Positions 41,606-63,944 of a stretch of DNA of 64,000 nucleotides are shown piece after piece. How positions within the stretch are numbered: the first letter of the stretch is position 1; every line of letters begins with the position of its first letter. The position numbers and the translations under genes were made by a program. The notes beneath the pieces are model-generated. The model saw only the letters and a list, made by a program, of their open reading frames with translations, made no database searches and was not told the origin of the DNA. Source of the DNA: Verrucomicrobiia bacterium (GTDB lineage: Bacteria; Verrucomicrobiota; Verrucomicrobiia; Palsa-1439); contig JBEKBH010000015.1 in NCBI GenBank assembly GCA_050015495.1, forward strand, positions 16,942-80,941, written 5' to 3'.

Positions 41606-43618
41606 CTAGAAGCGGACGTTGCAACTGGCGGTGACAAGATTCGCCATGTAGTTGTTGAAGCCGCCGGTGCTGGACTCGTCGTAGGAGTAGAACGCGTAGC
41701 GCAGGCGGGCAACCACATTCGTACTGATCTTGCGGCTGACGCCTGCCTGAACCGCGTGGCGCTGGAAATTCAATCCGAGCGGCAGACCGTTGGCGTCGTT
41801 GTTGTTGAAATTGTCCGCACACGAGTAGCTGTATTCGAGCGTGAGATCGGTCTTCTTATCGATCGCGTAGCCGGTCGTGGCCATAACCGTGTACACGTTG
41901 CCCCGGTACGGCTGGACGGCGGGGTTTTGATTGGCGGACGAGGTCGTCCGCGTGTCCTGCAACGAGAAGTAGCCGGTCAGATACCATCGGGACAGCGGCG
42001 TGACCGTGGCACTGACGCTGTAGATATTCAAATCGTAATCGCCCGACTGGAGCGTGCCGCCGGGCGTGATCACCGGAATCGCTTCCGTGCTGGTGCGGAT
42101 ATCGGTGGAGACGAGTTGGTAGGTGAACGCCACGTTGAAGCGCGAACACGGGCGCAAGGTCAGTTTGGCCATGACCTCGTCGGTGGTGAAATCCTGCGCG
42201 GTGATGAATCCGGGATAGCCCACCACCGTGTCGGTGGGGTAGTCGTAGTCATCGTGATCGATGTAATGCCGATAGCTGCCCGCCAGCGTCACGCGGGAGA
42301 GCGGCGCGGTGTTGAAGCCCACACGGTAATCCTGTCGCAAGGTCGTCTCGTCCGAGTCGAGGGCAAGGCTGGACGCGCCATCCTGCGTCTCCGTCTGATC
42401 CAAATCGATTTGCTCCTCGTTCCATCGGCCCTCGGCGTAGAGGGTGGTATACGGAATCTTCGTATAGCGCATGCCGAGAGTTTCCGAAAGGCTCTTGGTG
42501 TCTTCAAACGAACGAATCAAGTTGGTCGTGGCCGCGGGGGTGCTTTGCGTGAGAAGCGCGTCGGTCGAGCCGTGCGTGTCGGTTTTTTCCGCCTGCAATC
42601 CGCCGTAGAGAACGAGGCCCTTGAACGGCCCCAACATGCCATTCAGGTTGACCACGTCCGAATCCAACTCGACCCCGATCGCATTGGCCGTCCCGCTGAT
42701 ATCGAACGGCCCGAGCGGCGGCGGCGTATTCACCTGCATGTCCCCGTTACCGGACAGCGAGTTGTGCAGATAGCCGAGCGACCAATACACCTTGTCATTT
42801 ACGTGACAATCCATGTGAAACGTGTTGTAGAACGCGTCATGGTGGTAATCCTCGTGAACTGTTACCGTTTGACTGGAATCGGTATTCAGGTTTACCGACG
42901 TGTCGTCCCGCGTATCATCGCTGCTGAAATGTTCATAGCGGAAGTCGTCCAAGAGGTGGACTTTGCTGATATCGTAGTCCACGTTCAATTTGACGATGTC
43001 AGTGTGCTCTTTGATGCCATCGGACGAGGGATAAATCTTGCGCGTGTTCGCGCCCTGCGTGACGCCCCCCCACTCGACCAATGATTCGTCGCCATCCTGT
43101 GCTTGTCGCTCATAGCCGACGGTGACCTTGGGGAGATTGGGCAGGGTCAGTCCGGCTTCGAAGAAGATATCGCTATTATCGACCCGCAGATCTTGATCCA
43201 GCCGAAATGACGACGGCGTGAACGGGCCGTAGAATCCCCCCTGGCCGTCGTAGTACTCGCGATACTCGGTGTACCCGGCCCGAACAAAACCGAAGTCCCG
43301 CTTCGTCAATTGCAGCTGGAACTTGTAGTCGTGCTCATCAATGATAAACCGGCCTTCGCCATCGAGCGTTGTGTCCTTGTTGAGAACGTAATGCAGCGTC
43401 CCATCCTCGACGCCGCCGTTCCAGCCGGGCTGGATCCCCAGGTCTTCGCGGAATTTCTGGATATTGCCGGACACCTTCGCATACGTCACTTCCGGCGTGC
43501 CGGATAACTGGATCGGCGAATTGGTTTGCGAATCATCGCCCCGGGTGGTGGCGAGCGTCATCAGTCCCAAGGGGAGAGCGACGAGCAAAGCTTTGAAAAC
43601 GGTGTGTTTCATCACCAT
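41606..43618 (-). CDS. Outer-membrane beta-barrel porin, MtrB/PioB-like
   Basis: Signal peptide, amphipathic beta-strands, terminal Phe; 7 bp downstream of the MtrA-like gene. Confidence 0.85.
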   Translation of the reverse strand: MVMKHTVFKALLVALPLGLMTLATTRGDDSQTNSPIQLSGTPEVTYAKVSGNIQKFREDLGIQPGWNGGVEDGTLHYVLNKDTTLDGEGRFIIDEHDYKFQLQLTKRDFGFVRAGYTEYREYYDGQGGFYGPFTPSSFRLDQDLRVDNSDIFFEAGLTLPNLPKVTVGYERQAQDGDESLVEWGGVTQGANTRKIYPSSDGIKEHTDIVKLNVDYDISKVHLLDDFRYEHFSSDDTRDDTSVNLNTDSSQTVTVHEDYHHDAFYNTFHMDCHVNDKVYWSLGYLHNSLSGNGDMQVNTPPPLGPFDISGTANAIGVELDSDVVNLNGMLGPFKGLVLYGGLQAEKTDTHGSTDALLTQSTPAATTNLIRSFEDTKSLSETLGMRYTKIPYTTLYAEGRWNEEQIDLDQTETQDGASSLALDSDETTLRQDYRVGFNTAPLSRVTLAGSYRHYIDHDDYDYPTDTVVGYPGFITAQDFTTDEVMAKLTLRPCSRFNVAFTYQLVSTDIRTSTEAIPVITPGGTLQSGDYDLNIYSVSATVTPLSRWYLTGYFSLQDTRTTSSANQNPAVQPYRGNVYTVMATTGYAIDKKTDLTLEYSYSCADNFNNNDANGLPLGLNFQRHAVQAGVSRKISTNVVARLRYAFYSYDESSTGGFNNYMANLVTASCNVRF

Positions 43619-43625
43619 GGCTTCG

Positions 43626-44432
43626 TCAATACCGCAGGTGCGAGTTGATGTCCGAACCGTGAACGGCGGTGTGGCAACCCGCGCTGAAGCAGGTGCCCTG
43701 TTCCAGGAAGCTGGTGGGCGCAAACCCGGCGTGCGGCATGTTCCCGATCGACACGACGCCGGGCAGGGTCGGCGAGGCTACCTGTGCGTGGCACTTCAGA
43801 CACAGATTGTTGTCGCGCTCGGTCAACATCTTGGGGTTCATCGAGCCGTGCACGTTGTGGCAGGAGGTGCACCCTTCGCGCATCGCCTCATGCTCGTACA
43901 CGTGCGGCCGGGCCTGTTCGCGATGGCATTGCGCGCACTCCTCGTTCACGCGACCGACCAGCATGCCCTTCGGCTTGAGAATGTCTTCGCCATGCGGATC
44001 GTGACAGGAGATACAACTCATCCGCCCTTCCTTGACCGGATGATGGTATTGGAGGCTGAACTCGGCGTTCTTATCGAGATGGCACTGGAAACACGCGTCG
44101 GGACTCTTGCCGGGATTGACGATCAGCTTGGGATCCCCGCCCGAATCCACGTGCAAACTGCCGGGACCGTGGCAACTCTCGCACCCTTCACCTTCGACCC
44201 GCGGCCCTTCGCCGGGAATCTGGATGCGCGCGTGCTCCGTGAGTTTGAAGTTCTTCGCTTCCTTCTCGTGACACAACGCGCATTGGTCCATGCCGACGTA
44301 CTTGGCACCCGGAATCATCGGCGGGGCGAGGACCACCCGATCCACCGTGGCACAGGAGATGATCAATGCGGCCAACGCGGCGCCGCCGATGGCTGCGACT
44401 GTTACCGCGGTTGAGGATTGTGGTCTCTTCAC
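43626..44432 (-). CDS. MtrA/DmsE-like octaheme cytochrome c, probable lipoprotein
   Basis: 7 CxxCH plus CFSAGCH; CESCHGPGSLH and terminal CH..VHGS; IIS-C lipobox. Confidence 0.85.
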   Translation of the reverse strand: MKRPQSSTAVTVAAIGGAALAALIISCATVDRVVLAPPMIPGAKYVGMDQCALCHEKEAKNFKLTEHARIQIPGEGPRVEGEGCESCHGPGSLHVDSGGDPKLIVNPGKSPDACFQCHLDKNAEFSLQYHHPVKEGRMSCISCHDPHGEDILKPKGMLVGRVNEECAQCHREQARPHVYEHEAMREGCTSCHNVHGSMNPKMLTERDNNLCLKCHAQVASPTLPGVVSIGNMPHAGFAPTSFLEQGTCFSAGCHTAVHGSDINSHLRY

Positions 44433-44550
44433 AGATTTCCTCCGCTACCAATCTCCGCCGTCTGCCTGGAAAAAAACGGGCGACAGCACCCAACAACCTG
44501 CTTCCTCTGCGCTGCCGCCCGTGTCGAAACCGGCGCCATCGCGCCCACTC

Positions 44551-47247: not shown

Positions 47248-47275
47248 ATTCGTTGTCCTCCACCCCTCTGCTATG

Positions 47276-47290
47276 GCAGTGGACGTGCCA
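47276..47290 (-). promoter_or_regulatory. Candidate sigma54 promoter of the surface cytochrome-MtrAB operon
   Basis: TGGCAC-GTCCA-CTGC. Confidence 0.65.
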
Positions 47291-47377
47291 AGACCATCAT
47301 CCCGTTCTGTAAGCCACGCCTGGGCAGTTACTTACCTGAAACAATACGCCAACACAAGACAATAAATCGTTGGAAGC

Positions 47378-47415: not shown

Positions 47416-47480
47416 AGAGGACGTGGACAAGCCAACCCAATGCCGCTGCTTTCAAGGGTTTTGGGGGCAGAATCGCTGTA

Positions 47481-47495: not shown

Positions 47496-47511
47496 TAGGC
47501 ACGATAGCGGT

Positions 47512-47613
47512 ATGCTCTCCGGTAAAATGCTGGGAATTGTGCTCGCACTGATCGGGCTGATTGTCATCACCCTGTCAGCCGCCGTGATCTACTTCAGCAC
47601 TTCACCGCGCTGA
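47512..47613 (+). CDS. Candidate 33-aa single-TM small protein
   Basis: MLSGKMLGIVLALIGLIVITLSAAVIYFSTSPR directly after a sigma54 motif. Confidence 0.45.
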   Translation: MLSGKMLGIVLALIGLIVITLSAAVIYFSTSPR

Positions 47614-48994
47614 CTTCGCCAGCCGTCGCCGCAAGATATCCATACTTGATCAATCGTCGGCGTAGCGCGTCTCTCTCGATCCCGAGCAATTCTGCCGCGT
47701 GACACTGGTTGCCACCGGCGCGTTCCATCGCCTGGTACACCAACTCGCGTTCCACCTCCGTCAGCGCCACGCCACCGGGAGGCAACTGAATGAGGGAGTG
47801 TCCATTCGATCGCGTGCCCAGCCGCAGTTCGGTTGGCAGGTGTTCGGGCATCACCACCTCGGCGTGTTCGAGGATGACCAGCCGCTCGATGACGTTGCGC
47901 AACTCGCGGACGTTGCCCGGCCACGCGTATTGCTGCAAGGCCTTCGCAGCCTCCGGGGAAAGCTTCTTGAGCGGCTTGTTGAACTCCTCGGCAAAACGAG
48001 CGAGGTAATGTTCCGCCAGCAACGGAATGTCTTCGGCTTGCTCGCGCAGGGCCGGCATCCGCAGAGAAATCACCTTGAGCCGATAGTACAAATCCTGCCG
48101 GAATTCGCCGTTGGCCACGGCCTCCTCCAGGTTTTTGTTGGTCGCGGCGATCACGCGCACGTCCACGGTGATGGATTGTGTGCCGCCGACGCGCTGAAAC
48201 TCGCGCGATTCCAGGACCCGCAACAATTTCGCCTGCAGCGCGGGTTTCATGTCGCCGACCTCATCGAGCAACACCGTGCCGCCATCGGCGAGTTCGAACA
48301 GCCCCTTCTTCGTGGTCTTCGCGTCGGTGAACGCGCCGCGCTCGTGCCCGAACAATTCGCTTTCGATGAGCGCGTCGGGAATCGCCGAGCAATTGATGCC
48401 CATAAACGGCTGGTTCGCCCGCGCGCTGCCCAAATGGATTGCGCGCGCCGCCAGTTCCTTGCCCGTCCCGTTTTCGCCATCGATCAGCACCGTCGTGGCA
48501 TCGCTCTCGCCGACCCGCGAGATCAATTCGCGCAACTGCCGCATCTGCGGACTCTGGCCGACAAGGTTCTCCAGCCCGAACTTGCGGCGTTGCGCCCGGC
48601 GAATCCGCGTGACTTCCCGGCGCAGCTTCAAGTCCTCCCGCGCTTTCTCCAGGGCCACGCGCACTTCCTCGAAGTCGAACGGCTTGCACAGGTAGTTGTG
48701 CGCCCCCAGCCTCACGCACTCGACCGCGCGGGAAATCGCCGTCTCCGCCGTCAGCATGATCACCGCGACCTCCTTTTCGAGCTTCCGGATCTCCTGCAAT
48801 ACCTGCACGCCGTCCATCCCCGGCAACCGCAGGTCGAGCAGCACGAGATCGTAGCCGTCCTCGCGAATCAGGTTGATTCCCTCCTCGCCCGTCGGCGCCG
48901 ATTCGACTTCGTAGCCTTCCTTCGAGAGTTTCTGCTGCAGCGACCAACGGACGAGTTTCTCGTCGTCAATGATTAAAACTTTAATTCGTGCCAT
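47594..48994 (-). CDS. Sigma54-dependent response regulator (NtrC/AtoC family)
   Basis: REC domain, GENGTGKE, ELFGHERGAFTDA, WPGNVREL and a Fis-type HTH. Confidence 0.96.
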   Translation of the reverse strand: MARIKVLIIDDEKLVRWSLQQKLSKEGYEVESAPTGEEGINLIREDGYDLVLLDLRLPGMDGVQVLQEIRKLEKEVAVIMLTAETAISRAVECVRLGAHNYLCKPFDFEEVRVALEKAREDLKLRREVTRIRRAQRRKFGLENLVGQSPQMRQLRELISRVGESDATTVLIDGENGTGKELAARAIHLGSARANQPFMGINCSAIPDALIESELFGHERGAFTDAKTTKKGLFELADGGTVLLDEVGDMKPALQAKLLRVLESREFQRVGGTQSITVDVRVIAATNKNLEEAVANGEFRQDLYYRLKVISLRMPALREQAEDIPLLAEHYLARFAEEFNKPLKKLSPEAAKALQQYAWPGNVRELRNVIERLVILEHAEVVMPEHLPTELRLGTRSNGHSLIQLPPGGVALTEVERELVYQAMERAGGNQCHAAELLGIERDALRRRLIKYGYLAATAGEVSAVKC

Positions 48995-50480
48995 GATGTG
49001 TGACCTCCCGCGGCGTGCCAGCCTCCGGCGTCGTACAGGCCGTAAATTGCAACGTAAACGTGGTTCCGCGCCCGGATTCGCTGTCGACGGTGATGGTCCC
49101 GGCGTGCTTGTCCACGATGCTGCGCGTGATCGCCAGCCCCAACCCGGTGCCGCGATGTTTGGTGGTGAAAAACGGCGAGAAAATCTTGTGGAGATTGTCG
49201 TGCGGAATGCCCCCGCCCGTGTCCGAAATGGCGACGCGCACGGCGCCGTCCACCGGCGTGGTTCGCAGGGTCAACGTACCCCCGTCGGGCATGGCCTGGA
49301 TGGCATTGAGCAACACGTTCAGCAACGCCTGTTGCAGCTGGCCCGGGTCGGCGAGGATCGGCGGCAATTCGCCCGCGCATTCCTCCACGATCGTAACATG
49401 GTATTTCTGCGCGTCGGGCCGCACGAGCGCCAGCATCGGCTTGATCAAATCGGCCACGTGGCACGGAGCAATCTCCGGTTCGCGCACGCGGGCGAAGTCG
49501 AGCAGATCCCGCAGCGTTGTGTTCAGGCGCTTGATCTGGCGACGGACTTCGCCGACGATCTCCGCGCGCTGGCCGTTGAGGTTGTTCTCCTCGGAAAGTA
49601 CTTCGACGGCCGCGCCAATACCGGCCAGCGGATTCCGAATCTCGTGGGCGATTCCCGAGGCCAGTTCGCCGATCGAAGCGAGCTTGCCCGCCTGCTGGAT
49701 CTGTTTTTCATGCGATGCCTCGAGTTCGTGGGTCGCGTCATCGAGGCTTTGCACCATGGCGTTGAATCCGCCGGCGAGTTCGCCGATCTCGTCCCGGGTT
49801 TCCGTTGAGGCCCGCGCCTTGAGGTTGCCTGCTTGCACGCGACGCATTTGCTCGAGCAGGTTGCTGACGGGTTGTGTCACGAACCGGACAATGAGCAGCC
49901 ACAACACCACGCTCACCAGGATGAGGATCACGAACCCGTACACGATCAGCAGGTTGCGATTGCTCGCCACGCTGGCCTCGGCGGGGGCGAGCGATTTCTC
50001 GACGATGATGGCGCCGATGACGGCGGATTTCGGATCGTGGCAACGCTGGCAACTCTCGCTATTAAACACCGGCCGCATCACCACGGAGAGCCGCTGGCCG
50101 TCCTCGACGCGGGTGCCCTGCAGCACCCGGTTTTCGGTGAACAACTCCGGCGGCACCGCCATCACCGCGCGCCGCACTTCCTGCGTGTCGGTCGAGAACA
50201 CCACCGCGCCGTCGGGTTTGATGAGGCGTCCGCGCCAGATTTCGTCCGAGTTCTTCAGTTTTTGCAGGAACCCCTGGACCTCGTCATGGCGGTCGCTGAG
50301 CATGACGCCGTTGAGATATTCGTGAATCAGCGACGCGGCGATCAGGTTTTGCGCCTGCGTGCGCTCGTGCCACCACGCGCTTTGCACGCGGATGACAAAG
50401 TACGTGTAGATCGCAATTACCACGGCAACCGTCACGCCGACGGCGACCAGCATCTTCGCGGTAAGGTTGCGGCTAAACAT
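48981..50480 (-). CDS. HAMP histidine kinase with periplasmic heme-c motif
   Basis: CQRCH between two TM helices; AHEIRNPL, NAIQAM, PFFTTK and GTGLGL motifs. Confidence 0.92.
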   Translation of the reverse strand: MFSRNLTAKMLVAVGVTVAVVIAIYTYFVIRVQSAWWHERTQAQNLIAASLIHEYLNGVMLSDRHDEVQGFLQKLKNSDEIWRGRLIKPDGAVVFSTDTQEVRRAVMAVPPELFTENRVLQGTRVEDGQRLSVVMRPVFNSESCQRCHDPKSAVIGAIIVEKSLAPAEASVASNRNLLIVYGFVILILVSVVLWLLIVRFVTQPVSNLLEQMRRVQAGNLKARASTETRDEIGELAGGFNAMVQSLDDATHELEASHEKQIQQAGKLASIGELASGIAHEIRNPLAGIGAAVEVLSEENNLNGQRAEIVGEVRRQIKRLNTTLRDLLDFARVREPEIAPCHVADLIKPMLALVRPDAQKYHVTIVEECAGELPPILADPGQLQQALLNVLLNAIQAMPDGGTLTLRTTPVDGAVRVAISDTGGGIPHDNLHKIFSPFFTTKHRGTGLGLAITRSIVDKHAGTITVDSESGRGTTFTLQFTACTTPEAGTPREVTHHGTN

Positions 50481-55523: not shown

Positions 55524-56307
55524 AACTGTGCAGACCACTCAGCAGGAAGTTCACGCCGTAATAAGTGAAGATGACCGAGGCAAACCCGAGGATCGAAATC
55601 CAGGCGGCGCGTTTGCCTTTCCAGCCCCGCATGAAGCGGCAGTGCAGGAATACGGCGTAGATAAACCACGTGATCAACGACCAGGTTTCCTTCGGGTCCC
55701 AACTCCAGTAGGTGCCCCACGCGGAATTCGCCCAGACCGCGCCCGAGATGATCCCGACCGTGAGAAACAGAAAACCGAACGAGATGGTCTTGGCCGTGGC
55801 GTCATCCAGCGCCGCGGTTACGTCGGCTTGCACCCGGCTGTTCGTGCGCGAGGCGATCAAATAGCCGGTGCCCGTCAGCGCCGCGACCGCAAACCCGCCG
55901 TAGCCGAGGAAGGCGGTAAACACGTGGAACGTCAGCCAGTTACTGCGCAACGCCGGCATCAGGGGCTGGATCTTCGTCTCGAACGTGCTGGCGTACGCCA
56001 GCGTGACCACCGCCAGCAACGCGGTCGCCGCCCCGAGCACGGGGACATGATGGCGAATCCGCAACGCGAGATACACGACCACGATCGCCCACGTGAACAG
56101 CACCATCGATTCAAACATGTTGCTGAACGGCGCCCGCCCGGCGATAAACCAGCGCAGGGCCATGTACGCCGTTTGCGCCGCCACCCCTGCCGCGAGAAAC
56201 ACGGTCGCGGTCGAGGCGAACCACCCTTTTTTCGAGAACAGGTTAGCTGCCGAGAACAGCAGCGCCGTGAGATACCCAGCGAGGCTGAGATTGAATGCCC
56301 ACGTCAT
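55510..56307 (-). CDS. ccsA: Cytochrome c biogenesis system II heme lyase CcsA/ResC
   Basis: WGTYWSWDPKETW and GLHSYA motifs. Confidence 0.95.
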   Translation of the reverse strand: MTWAFNLSLAGYLTALLFSAANLFSKKGWFASTATVFLAAGVAAQTAYMALRWFIAGRAPFSNMFESMVLFTWAIVVVYLALRIRHHVPVLGAATALLAVVTLAYASTFETKIQPLMPALRSNWLTFHVFTAFLGYGGFAVAALTGTGYLIASRTNSRVQADVTAALDDATAKTISFGFLFLTVGIISGAVWANSAWGTYWSWDPKETWSLITWFIYAVFLHCRFMRGWKGKRAAWISILGFASVIFTYYGVNFLLSGLHSYARS

Positions 56308-57328
56308 AAAGCCGCTCCTTTTCGAGGTTGAGTTTGGTCATCAAGGCCATCGCCCGCGCCTCGACGATCTGGTCGCAGGCGGCCAGTTCCTGCTCGCGCG
56401 AGCGCACGTTTTCACGCACGAGCGCTTCGAGATCGTCGATGTTGTAGAGGTATGCGCCGTCGATCCGTTGCACGTCGGGGTCGATGTTGCGCGGGACGGA
56501 AATATCGATGAGGAACAGCGGGCGGTTGCGCCGGTGTTTCATCAGCGCCTCGACGTCGGCCCGGTGCAACAGCGTCTTCGGGCAGCCCGTCGAGGCGACG
56601 ACGATGTCGGCATCGGCCATCGCGGCCAGGCAGGACTCGAACCGCACCGCCTGTCCGCCGAATTCGTTCGCCAGTTCGACGGCGCGGTCGAACGAACGAT
56701 TGGAGACGAGAATGGATCGGGCGCCCTTCTTGGCGAGGTGGCGAACACACGCTTCGCCCATCTGGCCCGCGCCGATGATGATGACCGTTTGCTTCGACAG
56801 GTCGCTACGGAAAATCTTTTCAGCCAATTCGACCGCCACGCTGCCGACGGAGGTTGCGCCGCGTCCGATGCTCGTGCGAGCGCGGATTTCCTTGACGGCC
56901 TGAAATGTTTTCTGGAAGACGCGGTTGAGCACGCGGCCCGTGAGCCGGGCGGCCTGGGCGGTGTCATAAGCCTTCTTCACCTGGCCGGTGATTTCCGTCT
57001 CACCGATCACCATCGAGTCGAGCCCGCCCGCCACGCGAAACAGATGGCGCAACGCCCCGACGTCTTCGTGCACATACACGTGCGAGCCGTAATCACGCGG
57101 TTCCGCGCTGAGCAATCGGAACAGTGAATCGATGCGGCCGGTCACCCGCGCCGTTGTGCCGTAGATCTCCACGCGGTTGCAGGTCGAGAGCAGGACGATT
57201 TCATCGAGGTCGCCGCAAATCTTCAGCCGGCACGCCTGGCAGACCAACTGGGACGGTTTGACGGCGAGTTGCTCGCGCAATTCGACCGGCGCCGTCTTGT
57301 AGCTCACGCCCGCCACGAACAGTGTCAT
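56243..57328 (-). CDS. hemA: Glutamyl-tRNA reductase (short form)
   Basis: LSTCNRVEIY, HLFRVAGGLDSMVIGE, GAGQMG and DISVPRNI motifs. Confidence 0.95.
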   Translation of the reverse strand: MTLFVAGVSYKTAPVELREQLAVKPSQLVCQACRLKICGDLDEIVLLSTCNRVEIYGTTARVTGRIDSLFRLLSAEPRDYGSHVYVHEDVGALRHLFRVAGGLDSMVIGETEITGQVKKAYDTAQAARLTGRVLNRVFQKTFQAVKEIRARTSIGRGATSVGSVAVELAEKIFRSDLSKQTVIIIGAGQMGEACVRHLAKKGARSILVSNRSFDRAVELANEFGGQAVRFESCLAAMADADIVVASTGCPKTLLHRADVEALMKHRRNRPLFLIDISVPRNIDPDVQRIDGAYLYNIDDLEALVRENVRSREQELAACDQIVEARAMALMTKLNLEKERLYDVGIQSQPRWVSHGAAVLGS

Positions 57329-58506
57329 GCCGCTTTCCTCCGGGCGTCGAGCCAGGGATTGAGGTAGAAGACGATGAACAATCCGGCGATCATGAACGCG
57401 AACCCGGAGTAGACGACCGCGACGCCGGGATCTTTCACCACTTGCAGCGACGTGTAGGACAAATCCTCGGGATTGTAGCCGGACTGGTAGAACGTGTAGC
57501 CCTTGTAGGAGAACGGGCTGTTGACCTCGACAACCCGCCGGCCGACGACCGACCCGCCGTCGATCAATTCCAGCGTGCTTTTGAACGATTTGATCGGTCC
57601 CGTGGGCATTGTCTTTGGCGCGGTCGCGCCGCGACTCTCGTACACCATTTGCAACGGGCTGGGACCGGAGGACTGGCTGTCCTTCGTGTGCATGTCGAAG
57701 TCCGGGAACCTGGCAAACAACCAGCGATGGTTCTGATAAGTCGGACCGTTGACCGCCACGAGGACCGCGGGGTTGCGGGGTTCGTTGGACCGGCTGGTGA
57801 CCTCGCGCGTCTGCATATCGACGACGAAATCGGGCAAATACTTCAGGATGGTGATCTTGAATTCGCCGAACGCCTGTTCGACGCCCACTGTGACCGGCAA
57901 CGCGGCCTTGAGATTTTTCTCCGGCCACGAAACCAGCACTTTGTCCCCGCCGTTGTCATTTCCCGCTGGCGCGTTGCGTCCAGCGACGGCGCCCGGTTGG
58001 TCGTAGGTCTCGATTTCAAATTTCGTCAGGTGAATCGCAAACGGCAGTGGCTTGATACTATTTTCCGTTACGACCTGCGCGTTCGTCTCGCCTTCGCGAA
58101 GTTCGATGTAGCCCTTTTCGCCCCAGACGCCCCGGATCACGCCGCCCGTCAGTATGAGGAGTATGCTGATATGCGTGAGCATCGAGCCGAAGGCGCGGTA
58201 TCGCGCGTAGCCGCTGGTGCGCCGCACGGTGGCAAACCGCCGCGTACTGCATACCGCCACACTCGCGGCAAGCGTCCCGAGCAAGCCGATAAACCAAACG
58301 GAATAGAAGACGTGGGTCAGGCCCAGTTTGCCGAACAAGTCCATGCGGCCCGCCCCGTCCGGATAGTGGCGAAGATATTTCGCCACGTCGGCTCCCTGTG
58401 GAATCAGCGTGCCGGCGATGCAGGCGACCGCGATGACGATCACCACGGTCACCGCGAATTTTACTGAAGCCAATCGATCAACGACCCGTGCGGTAAAAGG
58501 CTTCAT
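57325..58506 (-). CDS. Cytochrome c biogenesis protein ResB/Ccs1 (start uncertain)
   Basis: GTLIPQ, FYSVWF, THISILLILTGG, VNSPFSYKGYTFYQSGY and DPG motifs. Confidence 0.92.
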   Translation of the reverse strand: MKPFTARVVDRLASVKFAVTVVIVIAVACIAGTLIPQGADVAKYLRHYPDGAGRMDLFGKLGLTHVFYSVWFIGLLGTLAASVAVCSTRRFATVRRTSGYARYRAFGSMLTHISILLILTGGVIRGVWGEKGYIELREGETNAQVVTENSIKPLPFAIHLTKFEIETYDQPGAVAGRNAPAGNDNGGDKVLVSWPEKNLKAALPVTVGVEQAFGEFKITILKYLPDFVVDMQTREVTSRSNEPRNPAVLVAVNGPTYQNHRWLFARFPDFDMHTKDSQSSGPSPLQMVYESRGATAPKTMPTGPIKSFKSTLELIDGGSVVGRRVVEVNSPFSYKGYTFYQSGYNPEDLSYTSLQVVKDPGVAVVYSGFAFMIAGLFIVFYLNPWLDARRKAA

Positions 58507-58569
58507 CGGTGCATTCAACTTGTCTTTGGCTCTGACCATCGCGACACTTTTGGTACGGCCTGTCGGTTA

Positions 58570-58584
58570 GCAGTGGCCTTGCCA
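58570..58584 (-). promoter_or_regulatory. Candidate sigma54 promoter of the resB operon
   Basis: TGGCAA-GGCCA-CTGC. Confidence 0.6.
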
Positions 58585-58642
58585 GTGAGAGATGACGAAC
58601 GATCCGATAGTTTGCAACGAATTGATTGACAGGGTCTTGCAC

Positions 58643-58731
58643 TGCGCGAAATCACGCAGGTCATGAATTGGGCAAACCTGATGTCGAGCGACAGATTGGC
58701 GGGAAGCAACCGTTTCCTCGACAGCTTGTCA
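58643..58731. promoter_or_regulatory. One motif-1 site plus paired motif-2 sites
   Basis: tgcgcgaaatcacgca (58643), cgacagattggcg (58689), cgacagcttgtca (58719). Confidence 0.55.
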
Positions 58732-58804
58732 CCGTCACAGGAAACGAAAACGCCGCGCGAAGCTGTTGGCCTCACGCGGCGTCGGTGATTGAACCTGCAG
58801 TGAC

Positions 58805-59398
58805 CTAGTGCTTCACCTTGGGATCCGGATGCGCGATCTTCGCGAAGGCTTGCTCGTAATCGAAGCCGACCTTCTTACCGTCCTTGGTTGTGTAGAGATC
58901 CGGTTTCCAAGCCGGGTTCTGATCGTTGTGACACATCTCGCAGCTCTTTGACGCGGGATAAACCAATCCGGCGTCGATGGCTTTCGCATGGTCTTCCATC
59001 GTGCTCTTCGCCATGTATTTCTTCCCCGGGCCGTGGCACGATTCGCAGGTGACGCCATCTTCGGGTTTGATCTTTTCGGTGGCGACTGATTCGGTGAAGT
59101 TGTACGCGGTCGAGTGACATTTCAGGCATTTCCCGCTGGTCTGGGGATTGTCAACGCCGACTTTGGCGCCGACAGCCTTGGCCTCGGGCGTGCCAAGCAA
59201 TTCGAATGCTTTCGCGTGAGGGCTGGCCTGCCATTTGCCGTACGCGTTGCCGCTGTCATCGGACTTGTGGCAGATGCTGCACATTTTGGGGCCAATGTAG
59301 TTGGCCGGGTCGCGGTCGGCCGCGAACGAGCTGCGCGCGCTCACCAATGCTGCGGCGAACATGAATCCCGCCGCTAAAATGAATCGTTGTCTGATCAT
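58805..59398 (-). CDS. Periplasmic tetraheme cytochrome, c554 family
   Basis: YIG..CSICH, W..SPHAKAF, CLKCH, GVTCESCHGPG, CEMCH; signal peptide. Confidence 0.9.
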   Translation of the reverse strand: MIRQRFILAAGFMFAAALVSARSSFAADRDPANYIGPKMCSICHKSDDSGNAYGKWQASPHAKAFELLGTPEAKAVGAKVGVDNPQTSGKCLKCHSTAYNFTESVATEKIKPEDGVTCESCHGPGKKYMAKSTMEDHAKAIDAGLVYPASKSCEMCHNDQNPAWKPDLYTTKDGKKVGFDYEQAFAKIAHPDPKVKH

Positions 59399-59445
59399 CG
59401 TATCCCCCCTAGATTGTTGCACACTTGTTGCGCAGATACATGTTA

Positions 59446-59460
59446 ACAACTTACGTGCCA
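59446..59460 (-). promoter_or_regulatory. Candidate sigma54 promoter of the tetraheme gene
   Basis: TGGCAC-GTAAG-TTGT. Confidence 0.6.
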
Positions 59461-59548
59461 TTCATTGTGACCACAATCGCAACAATCTTCAACCAAGAAT
59501 GTTCGGTCACGCGCCGAACCGGGTCAGGGCTCGTGTCCCATCCATGGA

Positions 59549-59587
59549 TGCGCGATTTCGCGCCCCGCCGGTGCGCGATTTGGCGCA
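59549..59587. promoter_or_regulatory. Paired TGCG-N8-CGC(A/C) sites (enhancer motif 1)
   Basis: tgcgcgatttcgcgcc and tgcgcgatttggcgca, 23 bp apart. Confidence 0.6.
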
Positions 59588-59630
59588 GCGATCGTCGTTA
59601 GAAATCCTCCTGCCATTGCCCCACGCCACG

Positions 59631-60776
59631 TCAAGGCCGCGTCTGCGCCGGGAGTTCGTGTGGCGCGCCGTAAACGTCGAAGTGGTACTGACGACCGTGA
59701 AACGTGATGGTGCTCTCCGAGAGATGACCGACGACGCCAAACGCCACCGCCAACACCACGGCGACCACGCCAATCGTCACGGCGATGCGCCGCTTCTTCG
59801 GATGGCGCTCGGGGCTGCGGTCGAGGAACGGCCAGAGCAGCAGCAACACCTGGGGAATCAACGAGACAAACAACCCGAGCGTCTTCGGGAAGTATTTCAA
59901 CAACTGGTACGTCGGGAGAAAATACCATTCCGGCTTGATGCCTTCCGGTGTCGTGAATGGGTCGGCTTTCTCGCCGAGTTCGACGGGCCAAAGCACGACG
60001 AGCGTCACGAGGACGCCGATCAACGCGCAGAATACCACGCCCTCTTTGAGGACGTGGTTGGGGAAGAACGGGATGCCGTTCGATTGGTCGATGGGTTTTT
60101 CTTCGCCCACACGCTCCAGCGTGGCCAATCCCTGCGCCCGCATCAGAACCAGGTGCGTCGCCAGCAGCATCGTCAACACCCACGGCAGCACGACAACGTG
60201 CAACACGTAAAACCGCGCCAGCGTTTCACCGGTCACTCCTTCGCCGCCCCGCAACAGCGTCCGCAAGTACTGCCCGGCCACCGGAATCGCCCCGGTGATC
60301 TCGGTGCCGACGGTCGTGGCCCAGTAGGAGAGCTGGTTCCACGGCAGCAAGTAGCCGGTGAAGCCGAACGTCACCGTGCAGCCGATGATGAACACGCCGA
60401 GCACCCACGTCAGCTCCCGCGGCTTCTTGTACGCTCCCATGAAGAACGTGCGCATCATGTGCACCAGCACGCAGAGAATCATCAACGTGGCGCCCCAGGC
60501 GTGCAGTCCGCGGATCAGCCAGCCGAAGTGGGCCTTGGTCATGATGTAGCGCACGCTCTCGAACGCCGTGTTCGTGGTCGGCCGGTAATAAATCATCAGC
60601 AAAATGCCGGTGACCACCTGATTGAGGAACAGGAACAACGACAGACTGCCGAAAGTGTGCCAGAAACCGACGTGCCCGGGCAACGGCTTGTGCGCCTGTT
60701 TGTCCGCGAAATGCTCGATGTCGTCCACGTCGTAGCGCGCGGCCAACCAGGGACGAAGTTTGTGGTACAGGCTCAT
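59631..60776 (-). CDS. Cytochrome b of a Rieske/cyt b complex (unsplit)
   Basis: GWLIRGLHAWGA, HMMR, GYLLPWNQLSYWA and KPEWYF motifs. Confidence 0.95.
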   Translation of the reverse strand: MSLYHKLRPWLAARYDVDDIEHFADKQAHKPLPGHVGFWHTFGSLSLFLFLNQVVTGILLMIYYRPTTNTAFESVRYIMTKAHFGWLIRGLHAWGATLMILCVLVHMMRTFFMGAYKKPRELTWVLGVFIIGCTVTFGFTGYLLPWNQLSYWATTVGTEITGAIPVAGQYLRTLLRGGEGVTGETLARFYVLHVVVLPWVLTMLLATHLVLMRAQGLATLERVGEEKPIDQSNGIPFFPNHVLKEGVVFCALIGVLVTLVVLWPVELGEKADPFTTPEGIKPEWYFLPTYQLLKYFPKTLGLFVSLIPQVLLLLWPFLDRSPERHPKKRRIAVTIGVVAVVLAVAFGVVGHLSESTITFHGRQYHFDVYGAPHELPAQTRP

Positions 60777-61210
60777 GCCGATTTCACCAATACTTCGCCG
60801 TTCACCACGGCCACGTCATGTTCGGTCAACGGGCGCGGCGGCGGTCCGGAAACCACCCGCCCGCTGGTGTCGAATACGCCGGCGTGGCACGGGCACTCGA
60901 TCTGGTGCCGTTGGGCGTTCCATTGGACGATGCAACCCAGGTGCGTGCAAATCGCCGAGTAGGCCCGGAACCCCTGCGGCGTGCGAAAGACGACGACCGG
61001 CTGACCACCGATTGCCACCATCTTGTGGTCCCATTCCTTGAAATCGTCCACCTTGCCCGCGGACACGGTTTGCACGCTCGGCCCGCGTCGCTGCGCCGGC
61101 CAGACGTAGCTGAGCACGGGGGCGACAAAGGCGATTCCCCACGCGATCAGGCCGCCCGCGAGCAGCCAATCCAAAAACGTGCGACGCGATACTTTCTGGT
61201 CGCCGTTCAT
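60773..61210 (-). CDS. Rieske [2Fe-2S] protein
   Basis: SRRTFL Tat signal; CTHLGC and CPCHAGVF. Confidence 0.95.
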   Translation of the reverse strand: MNGDQKVSRRTFLDWLLAGGLIAWGIAFVAPVLSYVWPAQRRGPSVQTVSAGKVDDFKEWDHKMVAIGGQPVVVFRTPQGFRAYSAICTHLGCIVQWNAQRHQIECPCHAGVFDTSGRVVSGPPPRPLTEHDVAVVNGEVLVKSA

Positions 61211-62427
61211 CGTCCGCCCCGTTTCTCGATTTGCTGCCGCTTGAGCCAGAACAACACCCCCATCAACGCGAGGAAAATCCAGATCGGCGTCAACGCCAGC
61301 CGCTTCCAACGCTCCACCTGCTCCAGGCCCGCGATATTCGATTGCGTCAGCTTCACAATTTCCGCTGACTGCGCGGCAACGGGCTTCAATTGATCGAGTG
61401 CGAGCGTATGCTGCAACGCTTCCAACTGGGTGACCTGCGTATTCGCCTCCTGTAACAGCAGTTGCTCATCATCGGTCGCCAGGCCGCGCACGGTCGCTTC
61501 GTGCACGCGGGTTTCAGCGCGGTCATAATCCCTCCGGCTGTCGCGAATGAGCGTGGCGACGGCGTCGCGGACACCGAGTTCCTTCGGATCGTTGGCGTGG
61601 CACTGCACGCAGGATTTCGCAAACAACTCGACCGACGCCTTCTGGATCGCGTGATTGCCGTGGCAGCTCACACATTCACTGAACAAACCCGCCGCGGCTG
61701 CCTCGGCGTGGGGGCTTTTGGCAAACAGCTCGCGCTGGCGGACGTGACACTTCCCGCACACTTCGCCGACCTGCGCCGTTCCCGGCGGACTGGCTCCGTG
61801 ACTGCCGTGGCAGGTCACGCAGGTGGGCGCGCTCAAATCGCCCTTCTCGAACAGCATCGTCGCGTGGTAGCTCGTCTTGTACTGGGCGACGATGTCGCTG
61901 GGAAGTTTGTATTGATCCATCAGCGTCGCGTTGCCGTGGCAGTGGCCGCACGTTTCGGGAATGTTGGTTGGATAGACGCGGCTGCCCGGTGTCTTGGGAG
62001 AAAGGATGTCGTGAACGCCGTGGCAATCAATGCAGACGGCCACGTGTTGGTCGTTGTGCTCGAACAACTGTTCGCCGTGCTTGCTGGTCTTGTAGCGCGC
62101 GAACTGGTCCGTGGACAACCCGTAGGGGTTCATGCGTCGCACGTCGCTGTGGCAGGAGGCGCAGAGTTCCGCGATTCCCTGCTTGGTGTTCGGACTGCGA
62201 AAATTATCGGTGACGTGGGCGGTCTCGTCAGTGATTTTGGGATCGCCACCGTGACAATCCACGCAATTCAGTCCCGCCTGCGCATGCACGCTGGCGGAGA
62301 ATTGGTGCGTCTCGTTGGTGTGGCAGTTGAGACACGAGATGCCGGCCGCGCGGACAGCGCCGCTCGTCATCACCAGGCAACACCCGATGGCGATTACATG
62401 GGTCCGCCGTTGTGGCAGTCGCTGCAT
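61207..62427 (-). CDS. Nonaheme cytochrome c with C-terminal TM anchor (start uncertain)
   Basis: 9 CxxCH, helical stalk, TM; ATGA overlap with the Rieske gene. Confidence 0.88.
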   Translation of the reverse strand: MQRLPQRRTHVIAIGCCLVMTSGAVRAAGISCLNCHTNETHQFSASVHAQAGLNCVDCHGGDPKITDETAHVTDNFRSPNTKQGIAELCASCHSDVRRMNPYGLSTDQFARYKTSKHGEQLFEHNDQHVAVCIDCHGVHDILSPKTPGSRVYPTNIPETCGHCHGNATLMDQYKLPSDIVAQYKTSYHATMLFEKGDLSAPTCVTCHGSHGASPPGTAQVGEVCGKCHVRQRELFAKSPHAEAAAAGLFSECVSCHGNHAIQKASVELFAKSCVQCHANDPKELGVRDAVATLIRDSRRDYDRAETRVHEATVRGLATDDEQLLLQEANTQVTQLEALQHTLALDQLKPVAAQSAEIVKLTQSNIAGLEQVERWKRLALTPIWIFLALMGVLFWLKRQQIEKRGGR

Positions 62428-63908
62428 TTCATACCTTTCCAAGAATCACCGAGGTCGGGCGCGGGATGCTGGAATTCCAGTCCCTGGGCGCTCACGGTCG
62501 TCAACTCGGTGCCCCCGCCCTGGGCAATGATAGTGTGGCAACTGTTGCAGTTTGCCGAGATCTTTTTGCCGTCAGCGCTGACGTGTTGATCGTCGTGGCA
62601 GCGGAAACAGCCGGCCGATTTGAGATGACCGATGTTGTCCGGATACACTTTCCAACTCGATTTCATCTCCGGGAAGAAATTCTCGTCGTAAATTCGCTGG
62701 ACCTCCTGGATGGCGGAATCGACTCTGGCCCGCTCGTTGTCGTTCGTGTAGCCGGCCCGCAGCGCCGCGGCGATCTTTGTTTCCGCTTCCGCCGTGGTCG
62801 CATAATCGCCCGCGAGCGCCGCCACCGCGTTCTTCTTGATCGACGGCAACGATGGATCGATGCGGCCGAGCGCCAGTGACGTGTCCACCGCGTCGTCGGG
62901 CGCCCGGAAGACGTGCGTGGGTCGATTATGGCAATCGATGCAATCCATGCGGCGCGGCGCGGCCTTGGCCAGTTGATCGGGCGTCAGTTTTCCGTCCTTG
63001 GATTCGTACACGGTGACGTGGCCCTGGCGGTCCGTGATGCGCACCCACGGGATGACCTGTCGCGCTTCGTCCGTCGCGATGTACTCGACCTTGTTGGCGA
63101 CGTTCATGTGCCAGTGGATCCCGCCCACGGGGCCGTGCGTCGGGTCGCCGCCGCCAACTTTCAGCAGCATCTCGATCGTCCACGGGCTGTTCTTTTCGTC
63201 CGACATGAAATGCGTGCGCACTTTCTCGACGGCGCCATAAAATTTCTGGGGCCAATGGCACTGTTCGCACGTCTCCTGCGCCGGACGCAGGTTCTTAACG
63301 GGTGTCGGAATCGGACGCGGGTACTTGTGAAAGAGCGTGGCGTACACCTGATAGCTGCCCGAGAGCTTGGATTTCACAAACCACGTCGCCCCCGGCCCGA
63401 TGTGGCACTGGACACAGGCGACCCGCGCATGGGACGAATTGTGGTAGGCCGTGTACTCGGGCTTCATCACGGCGTGACAGGTCTGTCCGCAGAACTGGAC
63501 CGACTCGGTGAACTCGTACGTGCGATAACTGCCGAGCGCCGTAAACATCAGAAACACGAACGTGACGACCGCAACCGCGAGGAACGCATTGCGCTGGCGT
63601 GGCACGTTGAAATCAATGCGCGGGTGTCTCGGGATTTCCCCCGGAGCAAGCCGGCGGCGATGGCGTCGTTCCCGCAGCACGCCGAAAAGGACCAACAACA
63701 AGCCCGCCGAGAGGAACGACGGGGCGACGATGTACGTCAGGATCCCCATGTAGGGGCTGCTGAAACCGGCGTAGAAATCGATGCCGATCAGGCAGACGAC
63801 CGCGAAAAAACTGCATGAGGCAAGGATAATGCCGATCAAGCTGATCCAGTTTTGGATCAGCGATGGCATCTTCTCGGGCGCGTCAGCTCGTTGGCGAGAG
63901 TCGTCCAC
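62394..63908 (-). CDS. ImcH-like NapC/NirT family heptaheme cytochrome (alternative start 63869)
   Basis: Three N-terminal TM helices, FCGQTCH plus 6 CxxCH, 504 aa. Confidence 0.85.
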   Translation of the reverse strand: MDDSRQRADAPEKMPSLIQNWISLIGIILASCSFFAVVCLIGIDFYAGFSSPYMGILTYIVAPSFLSAGLLLVLFGVLRERRHRRRLAPGEIPRHPRIDFNVPRQRNAFLAVAVVTFVFLMFTALGSYRTYEFTESVQFCGQTCHAVMKPEYTAYHNSSHARVACVQCHIGPGATWFVKSKLSGSYQVYATLFHKYPRPIPTPVKNLRPAQETCEQCHWPQKFYGAVEKVRTHFMSDEKNSPWTIEMLLKVGGGDPTHGPVGGIHWHMNVANKVEYIATDEARQVIPWVRITDRQGHVTVYESKDGKLTPDQLAKAAPRRMDCIDCHNRPTHVFRAPDDAVDTSLALGRIDPSLPSIKKNAVAALAGDYATTAEAETKIAAALRAGYTNDNERARVDSAIQEVQRIYDENFFPEMKSSWKVYPDNIGHLKSAGCFRCHDDQHVSADGKKISANCNSCHTIIAQGGGTELTTVSAQGLEFQHPAPDLGDSWKGMKCSDCHNGGPM

Positions 63909-63929
63909 TTCGATAGCCGTGCAGTCCTA

Positions 63930-63944
63930 GCAGCGTTGGTGCCA
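63930..63944 (-). promoter_or_regulatory. Candidate sigma54 promoter of the imcH-like operon
   Basis: TGGCAC-CAACG-CTGC. Confidence 0.65.

Follow-up and report, generated by a model that had tools for sequence, protein, structure and literature searches.

Gene content of the row

The gene content of a 64,000 nt stretch of contig JBEKBH010000015.1 (G000:C15:16942-80941; here called the window) was examined, and a row of 17 co-oriented genes, proposed below to serve extracellular electron transfer, was found on the minus strand from position 63908 to position 41606 (window positions are used throughout). The contig belongs to a metagenome-assembled genome (MAG) of 3.91 Mb (G000; 85 contigs, 95% complete). 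In the order of transcription, the row encodes an ImcH-like protein, MHC9, a Rieske protein, a cytochrome b, MHC4, ResB, HemA, CcsA and a CbcL-like protein, followed by MHC8, an FeS protein, an NrfD-like protein, a sensor kinase, a response regulator, OMC9, Peri8 and a porin (Table 1). A gene for a PspC-domain protein lies 3' of the porin gene and is followed by the genes for AhbD and AhbC. The list of open reading frames (ORFs), their translations and the Pfam and NCBIfam matches from which the row was drawn also place every gene named in a preliminary description of this DNA where that description had put it, on the minus strand.

The row contains 55 strict CxxCH heme motifs, distributed as shown in Table 1, together with one CX3CH at residue 140 of the ImcH-like protein and one CX4CH at residue 248 of Peri8. 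The total of 57 heme motifs given in the preliminary description is reached only when the two variant motifs are added, and two of its counts per gene do not stand, as the ImcH-like protein has 6 + 1 motifs rather than 8 and Peri8 has 7 + 1 rather than 7. Eight stop-to-stop frames with at least three CxxCH were found in the whole genome, and seven of them are inside these 22 kb, a clustering of multiheme genes that is far beyond chance.

Table 1. Genes and sequence features of the row and its 3' flank, in order of transcription
Feature	Position	Strand	Basis
Sigma-54-type motif TGGCAC-N5-CTGCT upstream of ImcH-like gene	63929..63944	-	Motif scan
ImcH-like inner-membrane heptaheme cytochrome, 504 aa	62394..63908 (probable start 63869)	-	Signature match; 6 CxxCH
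MHC9, 9-heme cytochrome, C-terminal membrane anchor	61207..62442	-	9 CxxCH; hydrophobic segments 16-35, 380-401
Rieske 2Fe-2S protein	60773..61309 (probable start 61210)	-	PF00355 60.2 bits
Cytochrome b, b6 fused to subunit IV	59631..60776	-	PF00033 202.7 bits; PF00032 60.2 bits
MHC4, soluble c554-like tetraheme cytochrome	58805..59461 (probable start 59398)	-	4 CxxCH; PF13435 61.1 bits
Terminator-like hairpin after MHC4, 15 pairs, 10 GC	58749..58783	-	Hairpin scan
Sigma-54-type motif upstream of ResB	58569..58584	-	Motif scan
ResB, system II cytochrome c maturation	57325..58539	-	PF05140 166.5 bits
HemA, glutamyl-tRNA reductase	56243..57328	-	PF05201 150.8 bits; PF01488 143.1 bits
CcsA, cytochrome c assembly	55510..56307	-	PF01578 175.3 bits
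CbcL-type fusion, 11-heme c domain + HydC/FdnI-like cytochrome b	53517..55538	-	11 CxxCH; PF01292
MHC8, octaheme cytochrome, C-terminal anchor	52613..53662 (probable start 53563 or 53530)	-	8 CxxCH
HmcB/HybA-like 4Fe-4S protein (FeS)	51759..52616	-	PF13247 82.7 bits
NrfD/HmcC/HybB-like quinone-interacting membrane protein	50473..51762	-	PF03916 59.3 bits
Sensor histidine kinase, periplasmic c-heme sensor domain	48981..50480	-	HAMP, HisKA, HATPase; PF21563 32.9 bits; 1 CxxCH
NtrC-type sigma-54-dependent response regulator	47594..48994	-	PF00158 234.5 bits; PF00072 109.4 bits; HTH_8
Sigma-54-type motif upstream of OMC9	47275..47290	-	Motif scan
OMC9, 9-heme putative surface cytochrome, 898 aa	44551..47247	-	9 CxxCH; MtrC/MtrF domain match
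Peri8, MtrA-homologous octaheme lipoprotein (putative), 268 aa	43626..44432	-	PDB and NCBIfam matches; motif scan (7 CxxCH)
Outer-membrane porin (predicted), 670 aa, family without Pfam model	41606..43618	-	Amphipathic-segment scan; complex model
Looser sigma-54-like motif upstream of AhbD	39767-39782	-	Motif scan
AhbD	38569-39750	-	TIGR04545 435.6 bits (cut-off 500)
AhbC/NirJ1-like, radical-SAM heme synthesis	37353-38543	-	TIGR04054 551.5 bits, TIGR04546 495.1 bits (cut-offs 650)

The outer membrane module

Peri8 matched MtrA in the PDB (6r2q_A) with an E value of 7.7e-30, in two stretches spanning chain residues 62-324, and by this match is a clear MtrA homologue. On the DmsE/MtrA decaheme model TIGR03508 it scored 156.4 bits, which is under the cut-off of 192.2, and seven CxxCH and one CX4CH were found in place of the ten CxxCH of the MtrA/DmsE decaheme family. 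Judged by score and motif count, Peri8 is a shortened relative of MtrA and no member of the decaheme family. The seven CxxCH, the CX4CH and a Cys after the signal sequence were found in the window protein and in all 19 of the 19 orthologues scanned in related loci. The CX4CH takes the form C-x-[SA]-A-G-C-H and aligns with the last heme site of MtrA. The Cys, which directly follows the signal sequence and is invariant in the alignment of orthologues, may be read as a lipobox; MtrA is not known to carry such a lipoprotein Cys.

The adjacent porin has a signal peptide, a C-terminal ...VRF (with terminal Phe) and no internal hydrophobic helix. Transmembrane segments were called here and below using a simple 19-residue Kyte-Doolittle scan, and beta-segments likewise using simple scripts. 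The porin contains 27 period-2 amphipathic segments, compared with 13.4 +/- 3.0 (maximum 22) in 200 column shuffles. It is not recognised by the MtrB/PioB family model (PF11854), which is carried by 10% of the members of its top cluster in the Atlas, and an OMP_b-brl match was found in 6 of 43 porin homologues and in 7 of 28 more distant ones.

A model of the complex of the porin with Peri8 gave ipSAE values of 0.91, 0.91 and 0.90, compared with 0.00 for the best of three controls; the ipSAE mark is attained by 58 of 80 solved complexes and by 2 of 110 mismatched pairs. Contact agreement between the runs was at least 76%, with 390-415 contacts, a pLDDT of at least 78 for the partner and a pLDDT of 87-88 for the porin. 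The contact residues of the porin alternate (227, 229, 231, ...; 276, 278, 280, ...) and span residues 56-618, as expected for a cytochrome within the lumen of a barrel. The model supports the view that the porin 'works like MtrB' and would sheathe Peri8. The Mtr-like outer part seen in the preliminary description thus gains a clear MtrA homologue that is modelled inside the porin encoded next to it.

OMC9 consists of a heme-free N-terminal region of ~340 aa followed by a heme domain, and it matched MtrC/MtrF domain II/IV with 47 bits (cut-off 30). Its neighbours in the Atlas, by features and predicted structure, were multiheme cytochromes with MtrC domains (TM up to 0.81, by row) from Chloroflexota, Ignavibacteriota, Myxococcota, Acidobacteriota and Verrucomicrobiota. 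Hence OMC9, which was first described as an unfamiliar surface cytochrome, belongs to a widespread class of MtrC-domain cytochromes and is not wholly unfamiliar. No other gene of the row is as poorly conserved as that for OMC9 (37-82%; for instance 41%, compared with 85% for Peri8 and 73% for the porin), and this fast divergence fits an exposed protein.

A short terminator-like hairpin with a T-run is present between OMC9 and Peri8 (44477-44492, minus strand), and it could yield more OMC9 message than Peri8-porin message.

Inner membrane modules and periplasmic cytochromes

The Geobacter-type ImcH signature has been described as three N-terminal transmembrane motifs, an adjacent CX3CH, six CX2CH and a NapC/NirT-like region (PMC6295460). 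The first gene product of the row has hydrophobic segments at residues 17-51, 54-79 and 106-129, a CX3CH at 140, CxxCH at 165, 214, 323, 434, 454 and 495, and a NapC/NirT region (PF03264; 48.9 bits) at residues 105-196, and its length (504 aa for the ORF, 491 aa from Met14) agrees with the about 495-519 aa of ImcH. Every ImcH feature listed is therefore present, and the protein is likened to ImcH by this published description. It is 52% identical to homologues in loci titled Pelobacter sp. (L074) and Desulfuromonadales (L081).

In the CbcL/MtrH/MtoC family, an N-terminal c domain with 3-23 CX2CH is fused to a HydC/FdnI-like cytochrome b of 4-6 helices at the C-terminus (PMC6295460). The CbcL-like protein of the row has this architecture, its 11 CxxCH lying within residues 38-359 and its PF01292 match (54.3 bits) at residues 434-613, with five hydrophobic segments; on the FdnI model it scored 31 bits (cut-off 115.85). 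Across 18 sequences that are 30-96% identical, His 442, 484, 498, 592 and 607 never vary, and they may include the b-heme ligands. With a complete ImcH signature and a CbcL-type cytochrome, the inner membrane part has the Geobacter-like character that the preliminary description ascribed to it.

The Rieske protein adjoins a cytochrome b that has both the N- and the C-terminal parts, an arrangement of the bc1/b6f type. The Rieske protein scored 72-74 bits on the b6f iron-sulfur subunit models, under their cut-offs, and the cytochrome b scored 224.6 bits on the ExtP model (cut-off 290). As all NCBIfam equivalog scores are below the cut-offs, the pair is assigned to no named subfamily. MHC9 is a candidate subunit of this complex; its heme domain and that of the CbcL-like protein share 31% identity.

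A further module is formed by a Tat-type 4Fe-4S protein that adjoins an NrfD-family membrane protein, and by MHC8, which has hydrophobic segments at residues 45-69 and 316-340. The FeS protein scored 251 bits on HmcB (cut-off 420) and 217 bits on HybA (cut-off 263), and the NrfD-like protein scored 284 bits on HmcC (cut-off 550) and 269 bits on HybB (cut-off 450). By these scores, MHC8-FeS-NrfD is of an Nrf/Hmc/Hyb-like kind and the equivalog of no named complex.

No segment of MHC4 passed the transmembrane scan, and an N-terminal signal peptide was read by eye from its translation. MHC4 is a candidate periplasmic shuttle.

Regulatory genes and promoter motifs

Residues 43-165 of the sensor kinase matched PDB entry 3b42_A (E 6.1e-7), a c-heme sensor domain of a Geobacter chemoreceptor, and the CxxCH of the sensor was kept in all 35 of the 35 tblastn matches, from about 22 distinct genomes. 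The dedicated two-component system reported in the preliminary description is thus a heme-c sensor kinase and a sigma-54 regulator, both encoded in the row.

Three motifs of the sigma-54 type (TGGYAN-N5-YTGCN) were found in the row, each 20-45 nt 5' of a gene start, and rpoN is present in the genome. The right-hand boundary that had been drawn for the locus, 63944, coincides with the first of them. Ten related loci had their upstream sequence complete, and in 8 of these the same motif was kept at a distance of 36-92 nt upstream of the ImcH-like orthologue; a motif was found before ResB in 11 of 12 related loci and before OMC9 in 9 of 9. Before MHC9, cytochrome b, HemA, CcsA, MHC8, FeS, NrfD, the kinase, the regulator, the porin and AhbC, it was found in none of the 9-15 related loci scanned, and it was found once each before Rieske, MHC4 and the CbcL-like gene. 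A motif was also present before Peri8 in 3 of 21 loci, two of which have no OMC9 match, and the strict motif was present before AhbD in 3 of 13 loci. The heme-sensor kinase and the NtrC-type activator probably switch on three sigma-54 units.

Conservation and distribution

The porin was found in 28 of 41 genomes in a set of relatives (G000 included), in 15 of 17 genomes of the same genus (G000 excluded) and in 31 of 401 genomes of an even sample of the phylum (G000 included). When the synteny survey proposed in the preliminary description was carried out by tblastn on fetched regions, the full row from the ImcH-like gene to the porin and AhbD/C was found in nine genomes of the same genus and three of the same family. 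A fourth member of the family has a shortened row consisting of the ImcH-like gene, MHC4, the CbcL-like gene, kinase, regulator, Peri8, porin and AhbD/C. Where the gene order differs, Peri8-porin is retained with varying neighbours, and more distant genomes have the pair either by itself or together with one or another selection of the inner modules.

A scan of named genome records identified 65 porin loci. Those at 47-91% identity were titled Verrucomicrobiia, Verrucomicrobiae or Verrucomicrobiota, and all named porin homologues above about 45% identity came from MAGs with these labels, which agrees with the earlier assignment of the DNA to a probable verrucomicrobium. Loci at 36-44% identity include Desulfobacteraceae, Pelobacter sp., Desulfuromonadales, Syntrophales and Planctomycetota (L072-L084, L091), each with an octaheme partner, and those at 24-26% are from Opitutus, Opitutaceae and Nibricoccus. 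A Peri8 homologue was located just upstream of the porin in 58 of the 58 loci with room for it (a further 7 loci had no room).

An ImcH-like gene was present in 9 of the 65 loci, including the Pelobacter and Desulfuromonadales loci and three Opitutae-type loci, and the ImcH-octaheme-porin trio was shared with loci titled Thermodesulfobacteriota, Planctomycetota and Opitutae among the loci scanned. The locus titled Planctomycetota (L091) carries nine of the genes of the row in a different order. As the ImcH-like gene stands beside the same octaheme-porin pair in L074 and L081, the term 'hybrid' used in the preliminary description is doubtful, and a hybrid unique to Verrucomicrobia was rejected.

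In a tree of 28 porins, an Opitutae clade was separated from a clade comprising the window, other Verrucomicrobiota, the Planctomycetota row and a Thermodesulfobacteriota-dominated group. This last group (7 rows, one of them labelled Myxococcota) was monophyletic with support of 95/99. The tree suggests transfer between phyla; as it was rooted at the midpoint only, no donor can be named.

A second, diverged MHC8-FeS-NrfD set (52-60% identity) was found in a genome of the same genus (G010; L013/L014), and a second CbcL-like gene (36-37% identity) is present within the row in G010 and in another genome of that genus (G014; L015), indicating that inner modules have been duplicated and reshuffled within the genus.

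Heme supply and genome context

A second ResB/CcsA pair was found on contig C14, so the pair in the row is an extra copy and cannot be the sole maturation system. HemA starts at 57328, the long ORF 56243-57928 being a spurious extension. HemA, AhbC and AhbD were each found as a single copy in the genome, and AhbD/C follow the porin in most related loci; they are housekeeping genes sited here and not dedicated ones. Of the 'self-maturing' system in the preliminary description, the extra ResB/CcsA pair can be retained, and HemA (as well as AhbC/D), being the genome's only copies, cannot.

A fused siroheme decarboxylase (AhbA/B-like; G000:C15:81081-82121, plus strand) is encoded ~140 nt past the right end of the window, divergent from the ImcH-like gene. 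It matched NirdL-like_HTH and two AsnC-type ligand domains (AsnC_trans_reg2) in Pfam, is the only copy found in the genome and has kept its position in 6 of the 10 related loci with room for it. As HemA, AhbD/C and the AhbA/B-like gene bracket the row, the cytochrome genes are nested in a heme pathway cluster.

The PspC-domain membrane protein (39917-41113, minus strand) was considered as a part of the system and rejected, as it occurs at that place only in the window and in one relative of the same genus (L017/L047); in the other loci AhbD directly follows the porin.

The eighth multiheme frame of the genome (1231 aa, 8 CxxCH; C3:37948-41640) is located in another row (C3:35688-44084), which encodes a second Rieske/cytochrome b, this 8-heme frame and a heme-copper oxidase subunit I (445 bits). 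The C3 row is probably an aerobic chain, one that exists apart from the multiheme island. A [NiFe]-hydrogenase match was also present in the genome.

Occurrence in sequencing runs

A 10-kb stretch of the row (41606-51600) was present in 20 of the 21 sequencing runs listed, from 16 studies. The labels of the DNA runs name a peat, wetland or soil metagenome or read no more than 'metagenome', and this DNA may itself come from two of the runs. In two metatranscriptome libraries from one study, OMC9 and Peri8 were matched by contigs with 0 differences, and MHC4 (at 58824-59365) was matched by contigs with 0-2 differing letters. The contigs of the RNA libraries fill 11 of 30 and 16 of 30 bins, the empty bins (19 of 30 and 14 of 30) being no sign of silence, and those of a DNA run of the same study fill 30 of 30 bins at even depth. 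The pattern in the RNA libraries is uneven, unlike that of the DNA; it documents presence in RNA libraries and is no proof of transcription.

A contig joint from 47864 to 60286, with 21 letters on the shorter side and seen in one RNA run and one DNA run, was taken as foreign, repeat-derived or due to cross-matching of conserved domains.

Proposed function

With a probability of about 0.7, the row is interpreted as a respiratory island that is conserved and co-regulated and that serves extracellular electron transfer in an uncultured verrucomicrobium of peat and wetland. Gene content, family signatures, conservation, promoter motifs and a confident model of the porin with its cytochrome are computed results, whereas the surface position of OMC9, the role of MHC4 as a shuttle, the regulatory connection, the electron acceptor and outward flow are inferred. 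At the inner membrane, as many as four modules working in parallel would take electrons from menaquinol, namely the ImcH-type protein, the CbcL-type fusion, the Rieske/cytochrome b pair with the anchored MHC9, and the octaheme-FeS-NrfD set. Electrons would probably cross the periplasm via the soluble MHC4, and perhaps also via the anchored MHC8 and MHC9, then enter Peri8 threaded through the porin and exit via OMC9 to Fe(III) minerals or humic quinones. The kinase and the NtrC-type activator would probably turn on the three sigma-54 transcription units, and the extra ResB/CcsA, with the genome's only HemA and Ahb genes, would supply and attach the hemes.

A number of findings weigh against this interpretation. 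The porin matched no Pfam or NCBIfam model, searches at E values up to 10 gave no match to PF11854 (MtrB_PioB) across the whole genome and no match of the porin-family profile to PDB sequences, and a faint MtrB_PioB match was found in 3 of 43 porin homologues (best 6e-5) and in 1 of 28 more distant ones (0.0071). The complex model was built from porin residues 26-668 and Peri8 residues 28-268 with self-built alignments, and its high score may partly reflect memory of the solved MtrAB/6r2q. OMC9 gave nothing significant against the PDB (best 6i5b_A, E 0.053) and has an ordinary signal peptide in which no lipobox was seen, and its proposed surface location draws on analogy and on its fast divergence. 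The ImcH-like and CbcL-like proteins are likened to the characterised Geobacter proteins by published sequence features. The looser sigma-54 pattern occurred 19 times in the window, compared with 13.08 +/- 3.70 in shuffles, 6 of 100 of which reached 19; as the motif is not enriched window-wide, the case for the promoters depends on where the motifs lie and how well they are kept. In the RNA libraries, a contig that terminates in adapter letters has its end at 47303, on the upstream side of the motif at 47275-47290 and 13 nt away from it, which is a misfit with a start at the OMC9 promoter, and Logan contigs in general neither prove transcription nor rank genes. Finally, as HemA and AhbC/D are single copies, the clustering may partly be that of a general 'heme and cytochrome' island, and the heme-copper oxidase in the genome makes inward flow conceivable.

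The direction of electron flow is not readable with certainty from the sequence, as the preliminary description had pointed out, and outward flow is the likeliest direction. It is rather unlikely that the same conduit runs inward, with electrons from Fe(II) or reduced humics passing to the quinone pool or, via periplasmic cytochromes, to the heme-copper oxidase, as in MtoAB/PioAB. Although MtrA/MtrB-type pairs and CbcL/MtoC homologues also occur in Fe(II) oxidisers and these families are considered reversible, ImcH homologues have been implicated only in quinol oxidation so far, according to the same text (PMC6295460). The oxidase that could accept such electrons is encoded on a separate contig, where it has a Rieske/cytochrome b and an 8-heme protein of its own, and, while reduced humics are on offer at peat redox interfaces, four quinol-type modules exceed the needs of an uptake route. 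Outward flow is favoured by the restriction of ImcH homologues to quinol oxidation, by the separate encoding of the aerobic chain, by the Fe(III) respiration shown in cultured Verrucomicrobiota (PMC13608581) and by the humic, often anoxic habitat.

Alternatively, the row could be a general heme/cytochrome c island and not one pathway, in which a common supply of cofactors and common regulation keep the genes together. The outer-membrane conduit would then consist of the last three genes alone, and the Rieske/cytochrome b, NrfD and CbcL-type modules would serve other periplasmic respirations. The only copies of HemA, AhbC/D and the AhbA/B-like gene found in the genome do bracket the row, and with seven of the eight multiheme frames located here any multiheme function must map here. 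However, the scan of the products at 37353-63908 brought up no gene for a catalytic reductase such as a molybdopterin enzyme or NrfA, and the three units share a conserved promoter type, with the only regulator pair of the row inside one of them. Distant genomes pair octaheme and porin with varying subsets of the inner modules, or with none, whereas the full set is syntenic across the family and nine of its genes recur, reordered, in the locus titled Planctomycetota. A general island of this kind is considered improbable.

That the conduit reduces a toxic oxyanion in soluble or colloidal form (selenite, tellurite), or some other compound accessible from the periplasm, instead of serving energy-conserving mineral or humic respiration, is very unlikely: toxic-oxyanion reduction is a reported role of the Geobacter ext cluster, which also joins a porin-like protein with cytochromes (PMC5877670), and the cytochrome b (on ExtP of the 'selenite/tellurite reduction operon' model), its C-terminal part (25 bits on ExtQ) and MHC9 (22-23 bits on ExtN/ExtO) do give Ext matches, but all are under the curated cut-offs, the porin and cytochrome are of the MtrA-in-porin type, and no equivalent of the rhodanese-like ExtH was found in the row.

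More tentatively, all the parts could be joined in one picture. A single heme-sensing, sigma-54-driven regulon would hold a near-complete multiheme repertoire, with four quinol-oxidising modules that are possibly tuned to different acceptor potentials, as are ImcH and CbcL in Geobacter. All four would feed one MtrA relative, shortened and lipid-anchored, within a porin that forms a separate family, and the whole would be nested in the only heme-synthesis cluster. This fuller picture is possible but less likely than not. If it holds, the abundant uncultured Verrucomicrobiia of peat would be dedicated humic/iron respirers, and the ImcH-octaheme-porin trio would represent a minimal conduit that is widespread and separate from the Mtr and Pcc types. 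Carbon turnover in peat and wetland hinges on whether anaerobes respire humics and iron or ferment towards methane, and Verrucomicrobiia are common there and uncultured. The locus offers a complete, testable parts list from quinol to the cell surface, with a likely sensor and promoters, in one conserved row.

Comparison with known systems

The outer trio is already in print with the same proposed role. He et al. 2017 described Verrucomicrobia from humic, anoxic habitats with a porin-cytochrome cluster proposed for extracellular electron transfer to humics (PMC5615132). That cluster has a porin of a new family (at least 20 strands), a periplasmic eight-heme cytochrome and, in several cases, an extracellular multiheme cytochrome, and the outer trio of the window has the same components when compared by description. 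The window porin family also reaches the Opitutus/Opitutaceae loci (24-26%), a group named in that paper. The model of He et al. leaves 'ET in IM' open, and the words Rieske, NrfD, 'cytochrome b', quinol and NapC are absent from the main text (the figure and supplements being outside that scope), whereas the window row supplies inner modules. The system was called non-homologous to those of Shewanella and Geobacter (PMC5615132); however, as the window octaheme is by its PDB match a clear MtrA homologue, the published view of the verrucomicrobial conduit as unrelated to Mtr would be corrected. Further additions are the lipobox Cys, the CX4CH eighth site, the regulators, the promoters and the complex model.

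As in Shewanella MtrCAB, represented by the Shewanella baltica Mtr complex in PDB entry 6r2q (PMC12133095), the MtrA-homologous cytochrome is encoded beside a large porin and modelled inside it, and the gene for a cytochrome with MtrC/MtrF domains is just upstream. In contrast to MtrCAB, the octaheme has eight heme sites, the last a CX4CH, instead of ten and a conserved lipoprotein Cys, the porin misses the MtrB_PioB model, the predicted quinol oxidase is not CymA, and the putative surface cytochrome has 9 hemes, a heme-free N-terminus of 340 aa and no lipobox that was seen.

The signature of ImcH and the architecture of CbcL, as published for Geobacter (PMC6295460), are both found in the window. 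The layout of an octaheme periplasmic cytochrome, a porin and an outer cytochrome is shared with Geobacter OmaB-OmbB-OmcB (PMC6344600), and a b-type complex encoded beside an outer conduit is shared with extHIJKLMNOPQS (PMC5877670). Unlike in Geobacter, a single row with a single regulator pair holds all modules of the window.

Zhong & Shi 2018 counted four CbcL-type homologues and one ImcH-type homologue in Verrucomicrobia and, in the text of their survey, reported no mtrAB/mtoAB beside any imcH (PMC6295460). By contrast, an ImcH-like gene and an MtrA-like/porin pair share a locus in the window row and in 9 of the 65 loci scanned, placing imcH-type genes in loci where the 2018 survey had not found them.

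The preliminary description knew of no such one-locus architecture in characterised organisms, but conduits encoded in one locus have been published: an MtrA/B-type pair is clustered with a quinol/quinone cytochrome (a CbcL homologue or CymA) in mtoA-mtoB-mtoC-mtoD of Dechloromonas and Gallionella and in cymA-mtrH-mtrABC of Rhodoferax ferrireducens (PMC6295460), and Geobacter has the extHIJKLMNOPQS cluster (PMC5877670). The mto and Rhodoferax clusters have one or two inner modules and, as described in the text, no maturation genes and no regulator (PMC6295460), whereas the window row combines four inner modules with ResB/CcsA, with genes for heme synthesis and with a sensor/activator pair. Limisphaera, which belongs to the same phylum, has been shown in culture to respire Fe(III) citrate and ferrihydrite and has multiheme cytochrome/porin loci with porins unrelated to MtrB, but its genes are described in several small loci of 1-3 genes (PMC13608581).

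No description of the full row arrangement was found in the literature searched, the scope of which did not extend to figures and supplements that may bear on the point. Within the same scope, the features not found were the full row with four quinol modules, an extra maturation pair and Ahb/HemA nesting; the heme-sensor/sigma-54 regulon with conserved promoters; the MtrA homology, lipobox and CX4CH site of the octaheme; and imcH-type genes sharing loci with MtrA-like/porin pairs. No new principle is involved, every module being of a known kind.

Other genes in the window

A radical-SAM protein (35959-37329, minus strand) and the ferrous iron transporter FeoB (33397-35409, minus strand) are encoded directly downstream of AhbC. 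It may not be by chance that an Fe(II) uptake gene adjoins an island with a putative role in Fe(III) reduction. An unusual 503-aa fusion is encoded at 26071-27582 on the plus strand, and consists of a cytochrome bd subunit I-like N-terminal half (44.2 bits) and a cbb3-type mono-heme c domain (58.5 bits).

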